A stretch of DNA of 64,000 nucleotides, taken from NCBI RefSeq assembly GCF_054482525.1, contig NZ_CM137006.1. One strand, 5' to 3'. Within the stretch, counting starts at the first letter, position 1; each line of letters starts with the position of its first letter. The position numbers were made by a program. Of this stretch, positions 57,001 to 60,000 are shown one piece after another.

Positions 57001-60000
57001 TATACTGAACAAATACATATATTACTTTCCTAATGAGAACTCACCATTTTATACACTGAAAATTGACAGTGCATTATCGTGGGATGCCATTGACGCAATA
57101 CGAGACTATAGTATTTCTGATATTTATCTTTATCCTGAACAAAAAACAATAAATTGTGTCGTTGAGATTGAAAACATTGTCTTTGGCGGTTACATTTATA
57201 CATTGAACAACGGCGTCACATTACAAAACATAGAAAACTCTTTAAAAGATTCTTCATGCCATTATGTCTTAAATGGCTATACAGAATTTGTTAACTGTTT
57301 GAGACAACTTACTTCAGGAAAGACTGAAAGTGTTCATCGCACCATCAATAAACTGAACTATGAGAAATTACCTTTTGGATTTATCATTGCCGCGTTTGCT
57401 ATACTAAAGATAGCATTTAAAATAAAATTCAGTAAAAATCATGTAAATATCCGAGCATTATTAAATGACATCAATTATTTTATGACTTATCAGGGCGAGT
57501 CCATTAACCTTATTTCACTGGATCACGAATACCCAGAGTCCTGTCTTCAAAATGACACAAACACATATTTATTAGGAAGAGTAATATTTCTGTATAACTC
57601 AATGATTTATAAGTTCATAAACTGTCAGGAACATGAAACCAATAACATTCACTCAGCTATGATAAATAACCTATTACAGGAAGTTGATATAGCCCTTGGT
57701 AAAATAAATGACATTATAGACAGCAGAAACATATCAACCCCCCATGAACTGGCAAATATTCTTACCCGCGAAAAAATACTTACAACACGGGAAAAAAAAG
57801 GAAACCTGATAAGCCTGTTTGATGGATTCACTTTATTCCATTGTGTTGGAATGATAACCTTTCTTATCCATTATCTCAGAACACCTGAAGAAAAAGTTGA
57901 AAATATATTTATGTTATATGGTGCAGATAAAAACAATAAACTACGCAGAAGACTGATTTATGACGCACTAGGAATAATTCAGTCTCAGCAGGAGTGAAGA
58001 GTTAAACAGGCAAATTATTTTTTATAAAAAGGGGATTGTTAAGTAATCCCCTGTTAATCAAAATACGCTTTCCTGACGATCTGATAATTATCAGCTCAAT
58101 ACATTTGACATAAAAGCGGTTTCTTAATTACTACTGCTACGATCACATATCAAATCATGATCGTACAATATACATTTTCACTATTATTTATTCACAATTT
58201 GAGACATCACATAATCCGCCCATGCCTGCATCATCGGTACACGCTGCTCCAGTAGATCAGTACGATGATATGCCGCCTCAACCTTATTTTTCAGCGTATG
58301 AGCGAGCGCCCTTTCCGCCAGATCCCGCGAATACCCCTGTTCGCTACACCAGTCCCTGAATGTTGAGCGAAAACCATGTGCCGTGGCAACTCGCCCCGGA
58401 ATGTCACTGACGGCTTTCTTTTTACGCAGAAAACTTGTCAACACCATATCGGAAAGGATCTGCTGCTTTCTGGGTGAAGGGAACACCAGTTCATCATGCA
58501 GGCCACGTATATTTTCCAGAATGTAAATAGCCTGCCGGGATAAAGGAACACGATGCTGTAGCCTAGCTTTCATTCTTTCTGCAGGTATAGTCCATACCCG
58601 CTTATGAAAATCAATTTCAGCCCAGCGCATTCCCCTGGCTTCGCCCGAGCGAGTTGCTGTAAGTATCACCATTAATAACAGTGCGCGGGTAACATTATAA
58701 GGTTCATCGGTATACACACTGGTCGCCACAAAAAGCGGTAACTGCCTCCAGGGCATTGCGGGTTGGTGTTCATCACGTCCTCTTGTCTGCTGAGGAAGCA
58801 AATGGTCAACCACATCAACAGGATTTGCTACACAAAAACCGTGCGCCCATCCCCACTGCATAACAACATGAATGCGCTGTTTAACCCGGCTTGCCGTTTC
58901 TGACAAGGTTAACCAGACTGGACGCAGTGTTTCTGCCACGTCCGCAGCCGTAATCGAATCCAGCGTTTTTGCTCCCAGTTGAGGAAACGCGTAATTCTCA
59001 AGCGTCGATAACCACTGCCTTACATGCTTTGGATTTTCCCATCCAGGAGACAGTTCTGCATGTACACGCCTGGCTGCATCGGCAAATGTTGGGATAGCGA
59101 CTTTCTCAGATTCAGCCTTTTTAATCTCCAGAGGATCATCACCTGCAGCAAGTTGCTCTCGCATTATCCGGGCAGTACGTGCAGCTTCAGCAATACTGAC
59201 CTCTGGGTAAGTTCCCAATCCAGCATTACGTCTTTTTTGTGTCACCGGACTTACATAACGAAAAACCCATTTCCCCCGCCCCTTTACTGAAGAAGGATGA
59301 AGGGTCAGTCCGGTAATTCCCCCATGGGGCAATGGTTTGTCATCAGGTTTGATATGTCTTGCTTTCGTATCCGTCAATACTGCCATACGCTAATTCCCGT
59401 CACTCTGGTATGCCATCCAGTATGCCATTAGTCTCTCGCTTCACTAAGAATACATTAGATAATATCGGACAACAAAAAGTGTAATACATTGTTTATAATG
59501 AAATTATATAACACCCCTGGATTAAGTCAGATTTATTTCAGGCGGTCCCCCTCACCGCCATATTCAAAGAAGAGCTCGTACGAAAGTGCGAGCTTTTTTT
59601 TCGCATATTGCACTCCAGGGGGGATGAGAAGCCCCGACCGGGGTTCGACAACTGGCGCAGCCAGTTGGACAGACCACGAACGCAGTGAGTGGGCTGCCCG
59701 CAGGGCGAGCGAAGCGAGTCAATCCCCCCCCTCACCGCCATATTCAAAGAAGAGCTCGTACGAAAGTACGAGTTTTTTTTCGCATTTTATCTGCCTGTAC
59801 GGCAGTGAACGGTATAAAAATCGAGTTTTTCTTTCGGTTGGCTTTCTAAGCTGCCTGTACGGCAGTGAACTCAAATACTACACGTCTAGCCCGTTGTTAA
59901 TAAAGCAAAACCATCTCATTTTCCTGCTACCACCCTTTTTTATCCTTACCTTCCCGCAGCACTAATTATCAACAACTTACAATCATCATCAAAAAAAGGG

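Follow-up and report, generated by a model that had tools for sequence, protein, structure and literature searches.

Two tandem copies of the 3′ end of tRNA-Ser(GGA) lie beside clpA in the window, which is the whole analyzed stretch of 64,000 nucleotides from contig NZ_CM137006.1 (RefSeq assembly GCF_054482525.1) and to which all positions refer. Very probably, the left copy (copy A) is the attR of a ~64-kb island of the serW/serX type, and the right copy (copy B) forms the end of an RtT unit that existed at this locus before the island. Two unrelated, known processes account for the two neighboring copies of the tRNA-Ser(GGA) 3′ end, one copy each. Both the attR scar and the RtT repeat are ordinary and are already covered by automated annotation and by the literature. 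Mildly new are only the strict compensatory matching between RtT units and their host tRNAs and the apparent non-use of the att cores carried by RtT units.

The repeat pair and its neighborhood

A repeat finder detected a 54-nt direct repeat at 59547–59600 and 59727–59780 with 96% identity and a spacing of 180 nt; by eye, the similarity reaches to about 59609 and about 59788. Within the 64-kb window, the core CCCCCTCACCGCCA is present only at 59547 and 59727, and shuffled sequences predict 0 occurrences. The core of copy A (59547–59560, plus strand) is a 14-bp direct repeat identical in sequence to the final 14 nt of tRNA-Ser(GGA) and represents attR, with island DNA on its left side and the chromosome on its right side. 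It is followed by the native downstream flank of serW including an intrinsic terminator (59561–59603, plus strand). This flank agrees fully with the one in strain 1190 and shows one difference to the K-12 serW flank, C59565 (T in K-12); its hairpin, followed by a T-run, folds with −21.4 kcal/mol (z −5.9). The core of copy B (59727–59740, plus strand) is a pseudo-attB at the 3′ end of the RtT unit and is followed by a second copy of the terminator flank (59741–59783, plus strand; terminator scan 59747–59780), for which the hairpin preceding the T-run has −18.2 kcal/mol (z −5.2). The original prediction of two tandem tRNA-Ser 3′ ends with the same terminator-containing flank was thereby confirmed, both hairpins being strong.

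Neither copy belongs to a tRNA body, as had also been proposed. ARAGORN reported 0 tRNA genes for the whole window, and an Rfam scan of 58500–60500 gave no tRNA match even at E ≤ 10, while the Rfam tRNA model RF00005 scores K-12 serW at 53.8 bits. A tRNA-Ser cloverleaf was looked for within 59450–59760 and is absent, and a tRNA or pseudo-tRNA at copy B was ruled out by the ARAGORN and Rfam scans. Weak Rfam matches to MicC, to Thr/Leu leaders, and to Arrc14 over 59463–59779 were rejected as far under the gathering scores; they are probably driven by the overlapping terminator hairpins and T-runs. The assumption that copy B sits at the distance from clpA expected for the tRNA-Ser gene proved correct. 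From the CCA of copy B (59740) to the clpA stop codon (60084) there are 343 nt, and likewise 343 nt separate the 3′ end of serW (925884) from the clpA stop codon (925540) in K-12.

On its right, the serW locus is flanked in the chromosome by the clpA open reading frame (60084–62375, minus strand), with the clpA terminator at 60028–60061 and clpS also located to the right. Between the repeat pair and clpA, an orphan type I-F CRISPR array (CRISPR4.1-2; 59783–59870, minus strand) was found by Rfam CRISPR-DR4 matches of 29.7 and 50.1 bits and by direct-repeat search. It is composed of a degenerate repeat (59783–59810), a 32-nt spacer (59811–59842), and an intact repeat (59843–59870). An orphan CRISPR locus between clpA and infA has been described (PMC3903273), and the array resembles E. 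coli CRISPR4.1-2 in its position, the 28-nt repeat, the single spacer, and the lack of cas genes nearby; according to the alignment, its spacer differs from the K-12 spacer. The array is a neighbor of the repeat pair and no part of the RtT/att structure.

Island, attachment sites, and integrase

The visible part of the genomic island covers positions 1–59546, and its left end together with attL lies beyond the window. The island variants most closely related to this one are those of AH62, AH65, and E21, which are 99.9–100% identical and located at serX. The window and the serX island of AH62 are colinear, with identities of 99.94% for 1–47682, 100% for 48993–52503, and 99.4% for 56503–59782; an extra 1.31-kb insertion of the IS3 family relative to AH62 is present at 47683–48992. 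By homology, position 1 of the window corresponds to position 2825811 of AH62, where the tRNA ends at 2821350; we infer that an intact tRNA would be located ~4.46 kb beyond the left edge of the window and that the island would measure about 64 kb, the sum of the 62.7 kb in AH62 and the IS. In AH62 and E21, the order is ghrA, tRNA-Ser, island, int, and then the phoH or pga side, whereas the right island end in the window adjoins the serW flank. Therefore, one integrase and one core serve both identical tRNA-Ser(GGA) genes. The left flank of the island in the window could be either the serW (infA) or the serX (ghrA) locus.

Among the complete genomes, none with exactly this island at serW was found, AH62 and E21 carrying it at serX. 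The best example at serW is ETEC1738, whose cargo differs. It is also the closest complete genome for the right junction (99.4% over 8 kb) and shows the order infA, intact tRNA-Ser, ~91-kb island, int, copy A, 'RtT sRNA', and clpA. Its island contains a cbtA/yeeU module, cah, ter, ure, iha, and many IS elements. Positions 50825–62817 of the window are 99.0% identical to the end of this serW island, so that an integrase-adjacent module is common to both. The right junction, i.e., island plus RtT, is present in 170–200 complete genomes.

In both ETEC1738 (serW) and AH62 (serX), attL consists of AATCCCCCCCTCACCGCCA followed by GATTATAAGCGC, and the island DNA is the same in both; in ETEC1738, the tRNA end AATCCCCCCCTCACCGCCA runs straight into the island DNA GATTATAAGCGCATG. 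At attR, the island sequence CAGGCGGT is followed by CCCCCTCACCGCCA and then by a locus-specific chromosomal flank; the island side ending in TTTCAGGCGGT joins CCCCCTCACCGCCA, after which the native serW flank begins. Comparison of the attL and attR sequences revealed that the identity common to both junctions is 14 bp, ending at CCA. The attR copy of this 14-bp repeat is the one in the window (59547–59560), and attL copies were seen in the comparators ETEC1738 and AH62, so that the search for a matching attL succeeded there; for the island studied here, attL lies beyond the left edge of the window. It had been suggested that the intact tRNA must be elsewhere or lost. The first part holds, as the tRNA is found at the other island end in the comparators, and loss is unsupported.

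Islands of this kind are well documented. OI-43 and OI-48 of EDL933 occupy serW and serX, and both are bounded by perfect 14-bp repeats TGGCGGTGAGGGGG, which correspond to the final 14 bp of the tRNA genes and are identical to the repeats of the Shigella SRL-PAI; the islands have an integrase of the P4 family, excision occurs by recombination between the repeats at published rates, and the tRNA remnant of the insertion was named cryptic ser'W (PMC3064760). The core of copy A, CCCCCTCACCGCCA, is the reverse complement of TGGCGGTGAGGGGG. The 14-bp repeat is thus identical to that of the serW/serX islands OI-43, OI-48, and SpLE1 of E. coli O157:H7 and SRL-PAI of Shigella flexneri, and the predicted integration at tRNA-Ser is borne out, with copy A as attR of a serW/serX island and a core that is the published direct repeat. 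As in OI-43, OI-48, and SRL-PAI, the integrase lies on the clpA side, next to the 'cryptic' remnant of the tRNA, and serW and serX are both used. In contrast to these islands, ter, ure, and iha are missing, and the cargo comprises Ag43/Cah and a type I restriction-modification system with darT/darG, furthermore sugar-utilization genes, an 'enterotoxin', and a split AAA/kinase-like gene.

The integrase gene (58184–59386, minus strand) encodes 400 amino acids and is located at the right end of the island with transcription directed away from attR. Its start at 59386 is 160 nt to the left of copy A, in agreement with the ~160 bp given originally. The protein has the Pfam architecture Arm-DNA-bind_3, Phage_int_M, and Phage_integrase; against the integrase domain of NCBIfam NF007246 it reaches 187 bits, which is below the curated cut-off of 434. 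RefSeq labels the orthologue as a tyrosine-type recombinase/integrase. Judged by its sequence, it is a tyrosine integrase of the P4 type. Two GTATGCCAT repeats 12 nt apart (59408–59428, plus strand) are candidate arm-type integrase binding sites; this sequence occurs nowhere else in the 64-kb window, and an identical pair is located 57–77 nt inside attL of AH62. An inverted repeat GGCGGT/ACCGCC (59541–59559) brackets the crossover region at the island-chromosome junction and folds as a 6-bp hairpin (z −4.1). The GTATGCCAT pair and this inverted repeat would fit a functional att region. A sigma-70-like promoter match reading into the integrase gene (59503–59530, minus strand; CTGACT-16-TATAAT, 10/12) is a match to the consensus only.

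We propose that attP of the island recombined with the last 14 bp of serW via the P4-type tyrosine integrase. The intact tRNA would have stayed at attL, completed by the core copy of the island as in the comparators, and the original 14 bp together with the native serW terminator would have moved to the far end of the island to become attR, i.e., copy A. The serW locus of this lineage would already have borne one RtT unit before the insertion. The attL expected from this model is an intact tRNA-Ser(GGA) ending in CCCCCCCTCACCGCCA and followed by GATTATAAGCGC; the expected circular form of the island would contain GGCGGT, the core, and GATTATAAG, with the RtT unit remaining in the chromosome.

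An alternative, which we consider improbable, is that the island as a whole resulted from homologous recombination or inversion between two island copies at serX and serW, so that the tRNA at its left end would be serX on the ghrA side and not serW on the infA side. It would account for the location of the closest island relatives at serX and for the division of the similarities, with 50825–62817 resembling the serW island of ETEC1738 (99.0%) and 1–47682 the serX island of AH62 (99.94%), and strains with islands at both serW and serX have been documented (PMC3064760). However, simple integration at serW suffices, given that one integrase and one core serve both attB sites, and AH62 also matches the right end with 99.4%.

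The RtT unit and the island-free serW alleles

The second copy ends an RtT repeat unit of the serW type (59604–59740, plus strand), which matches Rfam RF00391 over its full length (model positions 1–130). With 41.3 bits (E 4.4e-6), the unit scores below the Rfam gathering score of 45, probably because of two extra C at 59724–59725; orthologous serW units in B1.H1.39 reach 45.1 and 48.6 bits. At 59721–59740, the unit of the window ends in a copy of the 3′ part of tRNA-Ser that reaches from AAT of the T-loop to CCA, with the two extra C included; it reads AATC(8)TCACCGCCA, where the serW end reads AATCCCCCCCTCACCGCCA. In other E. coli, the orthologous position carries the RefSeq annotation 'RtT sRNA', for a single unit or for two units in tandem. 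The observation that the stretch upstream of copy B is not tRNA sequence was therefore right, and it is so because this stretch is RtT and not because a tRNA gene was destroyed. The RtT module of ~180 nt consists of the terminator flank, a structured core of ~120 nt, and a built-in copy of the last ~19 nt of the tRNA, after which the flank appears again; this gives copy B.

In K-12, tyrT/tyrV is followed by units of ~178 nt that score 133–137 bits and all terminate in the final 19 nt of tRNA-Tyr. Like RtT of the tyrT operon (RF00391; rttR of E. coli K-12), the serW-type repeat forms tandem units of ~175–182 nt directly after a tRNA, the end of each unit equals the last 19 nt of the host tRNA, and the conserved core GATGAGAA..CGAC..GGTTCGA..GCCCGNAGGGCG is common to both. 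The predicted fold is also the same, with a closing helix between the 5′ G-run and the tRNA-derived 3′ strand and with internal hairpins; in minimum-energy folding, the units of serW and tyrV adopt one architecture with modest z values of −1.4 and −2.0. Unlike the tyrT units, the serW-type unit has tRNA-Ser(GGA) as host, with four segments changed in a compensatory manner to the T-stem of tRNA-Ser, and its internal hairpin region is ~10 nt longer. The units of serW and serX have an intrinsic terminator between CCA and the RtT core, whereas the tyrT units have none. The unit in the window additionally differs from the tyrT units in two respects: the island separates it from its tRNA, and its score is just under the gathering score.

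According to secondary citations, RtT RNA is released by processing from the transcript of the tRNA operon. The promoter scan gave no plus-strand match within 59380–59600, and by the inferred island size the unit is now ~64 kb away from the serW promoter, with a terminator preceding it. It is probably poorly expressed because the island separates it from the serW promoter and a terminator lies upstream. The insertion at serW thus uncouples the RtT unit from the tRNA transcript, and if RtT RNAs matter physiologically, carriage of the island would be a natural knock-down.

Island-free alleles reveal the state before the insertion. In strain 1190, the order is infA, serW, a 43-nt flank, RtT, and clpA, and its sequence is colinear with 59547–60090 of the window (514/544 identical positions, 100% over 59547–59723); within the RtT unit, the two extra C at 59724–59725 of the window are the only differences. 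The allele infA-serW-flank-RtT-flank-CRISPR-clpA was found in 939/5426 complete E. coli genomes with a locus-specific query comprising the infA side, serW, the flank, and the whole RtT unit; a count of 3887/5426 pools serW with its paralogue serX and does not refer to serW alone. The serX tRNA is identical to that of serW, has a similar flank, and is followed by its own RtT units. The K-12-type serW without RtT is also common, and the number of units among strains is 0, 1, or 2. These alleles imply that the RtT unit is chromosomal and older than the insertion and that no rearrangement is necessary; the later rearrangement that had been suggested was hence dropped, as copy B and the 126 nt preceding it form a normal RtT unit. 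The K-12 flank combines a terminator of the copy A type (GTGCGAGC, T8) with a junction to the CRISPR repeat of the copy B type, as would be expected if recombination between the repeats had removed one unit. Repeats of 54–62 nt probably let the 180-nt units be gained or lost by homologous recombination.

A further explanation is serial integration, by which the 126 nt between the copies would be a decayed second element and copies A and B would both be attR. Duplication of a tRNA 3′ end is the usual signature of an integrative element, a perfect att core ends each RtT unit, and the number of units differs between strains. However, the att core stops at CCA, and ~48 nt of the terminator flank are duplicated as well, which argues against this explanation because site-specific integration would not duplicate the flank. 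Moreover, an RtT unit of the serW type follows intact serW without any island, the units at tRNA-Tyr and tRNA-Ser(GCT) have their own 3′ ends together with compensatory internal changes, and an island was joined to an RtT-borne core in 0/5426 genomes. We hence regard serial integration as very unlikely, and it is conceivable that the RtT family as a whole arose by integration in the very distant past. Least likely by a slight degree, and highly doubtful, is a rearrangement after integration at serW that destroyed or removed the tRNA body at copy B, perhaps with loss of tRNA-Ser, which would suit a window without tRNA, the location of copy B at the K-12 tRNA 3′-end position, and the non-tRNA sequence upstream of it, but this sequence is a full-length RtT unit, the entire region between copy A and clpA aligns colinearly, at up to 100% identity, with an island-free allele that keeps serW, and comparators with the same junction retain the intact tRNA at attL.

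For annotation, the reading of copy A as attR and of copy B as the end of a pre-existing RtT unit is of practical value. The body-less 3′ end of a tRNA beside an integrase is easily misread as a damaged or lost tRNA gene. RtT units place at least one extra perfect copy of the att core beside attR at a distance of 180 nt; therefore, repeat-based island software can set the boundary 180 or 360 nt away from its true place. Cores borne by RtT units can also yield false calls of tandem insertions.

Matching between RtT units and host tRNAs

A pattern scan with one genome per species gave at least 80 loci with at least 120 core matches. For the 80 loci listed from other species, the core of the first unit begins 61–70 nt after the tRNA, and the next units follow in steps of ~175–182 nt. 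The matches listed include 103 units with a tRNA upstream on the same strand. Among these listed matches, tRNA-Tyr(GTA) is the host of 50 units, with the variable segments CTTC/AAGG in 46 of them; tRNA-Ser(GGA) is the host of 47 units, 40 of them with CCCC/GGGG; and tRNA-Ser(GCT) of Pseudoalteromonas is the host of 6 units, 5 of which have CCTC/AGGG. No cross-type unit, i.e., a unit with segments of another host tRNA, was found among the 103 units listed, and the last 19 nt of the host tRNA are copied with at most one mismatch in 62 of these 103. Four segments track the T-stem of the host: a 5′ G-rich run complementary to the 3′ strand of the T-stem, a short C-rich strand, the 5′ strand of the T-stem followed by TTCGA, and the terminal 19 nt.

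In an alignment of 52 units, helix P1 is 95% paired and helix P2 99.7% paired; helix P3 was left out of the pair count, as its placement is ambiguous in the mixed Tyr/Ser alignment. Double changes between AU and GC or between UA and CG occur at four pairs of P1/P2, and the inner hairpin shows independent GC/AU changes in both directions. Shuffled and slid controls scored much lower than the real alignment. The covariation between Tyr and Ser units reflects few independent evolutionary events.

The left end of an island was joined to an RtT-borne core in none of the 5426 complete E. coli genomes (0/5426), which points to an integrase that needs tRNA sequence beyond the common part; evidently, sequence of the tRNA outside the common 14–19 nt would be required. 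A possible, but still doubtful, interpretation is that RtT units are mimics of the acceptor/T-arm which co-evolve with the host tRNA, and that their att cores are unused, so that recognition of attB would reach into the tRNA body. If the host-specific covariation and the refractory pseudo-attB are undescribed, they would offer a handle on RtT function and on the targeting of P4-type integrases. No description of RtT units behind tRNA-Ser was found in the searchable literature, the coverage of which is incomplete. That RtT occurred only beside class II tRNAs (Tyr, Ser) among the matches listed was put down to a probable bias of the search pattern, since RtT-family RNAs have been reported beside Asn and Lys tRNA genes in Pasteurellaceae (PMC4986893).

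Location of the island and its integrase-proximal end

Window positions 1-59546 were compared with loci of the E. coli strains AH62 (L008, L010, and L009) and E21 (L131 and L132). The genomic island occupying this stretch is 99.94-100% identical to one located at the tRNA-Ser(GGA) gene serX in AH62, AH65, and E21, whereas in the window the same island adjoins the serW/clpA flank. Its integrase-proximal module is common to islands of very unlike cargo, since the last ~12 kb (50825-62817) match the terminal part of the ETEC1738 ter/ure/iha island with 99% identity.

Just within both island ends, pairs of GTATGCCAT with a spacing of 12 nt were detected (window 59408-59428; AH62 locus L008 3908-3928), while none were found elsewhere within the 64-kb window. 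These pairs are candidate arm-type integrase binding sites. The integrase gene is adjoined by an AT-rich ORF of 605 aa (56180-57997), for which no NCBIfam match was found and which is kept in every examined island of the window's type, being annotated there as 'hypothetical protein'.

Cargo genes of the island

A type I restriction-modification operon (13375-21994) comprises hsdM (13375-15813), hsdS (15807-17147), and hsdR (18899-21994), and a darT/darG toxin-antitoxin pair (17160-18880) is placed between hsdS and hsdR. The operon is followed by an M48 peptidase gene (21994-22710); gene names in this region (13375-22710) were taken from the RefSeq annotation of AH62.

The gene of a 1652-aa 'AAA domain-containing protein' (44366-50649) is unbroken in AH62, while the window copy is divided by an IS3-family insertion of 1.31 kb (47683-48992) with its transposase ORF at 48060-48950. 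The N-terminal AAA fragment (48832-50649) weakly matched PglW/MAD6 defence-system kinases, with scores of 79-92 bits that are far under the cut-offs. The gene beside the split AAA gene (42933-44369) carries no annotation.

RtT repeats and a CRISPR array near tRNA-Ser genes

The window RtT copy, a repeat unit 3' of tRNA genes, contains a C-run at the T-stem/acceptor junction (59724-59731), the length of which varies among the orthologues: it amounts to 8 C in the window and 6-7 C in other strains, with 7 C in serW itself. This variation suffices to shift an RtT copy across the Rfam gathering score, so that RefSeq annotation of RtT is present or absent depending on the genome.

Paralogous RtT repeats are carried by the serX locus 3' of attR. 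In AH62 (L009 3045-3330), they are arranged as a core, a terminator flank, a full RtT, and again a core, a flank, and an RtT truncated after ~40 nt. In Pseudoalteromonas (L012, L039, L049, and L058), tRNA-Ser(GCT) is followed by RtT-like units whose variable segments are all fitted to the T-stem of this tRNA (GAGGG/CCCTC); the RtT family therefore reaches beyond Enterobacterales.

The interval from the serW flank to clpA contains an orphan CRISPR array of type I-F (59783-59870). It consists of two 28-nt repeats, one intact and one degenerate, and one 32-nt spacer, which is not the same as the K-12 spacer at the equivalent position.
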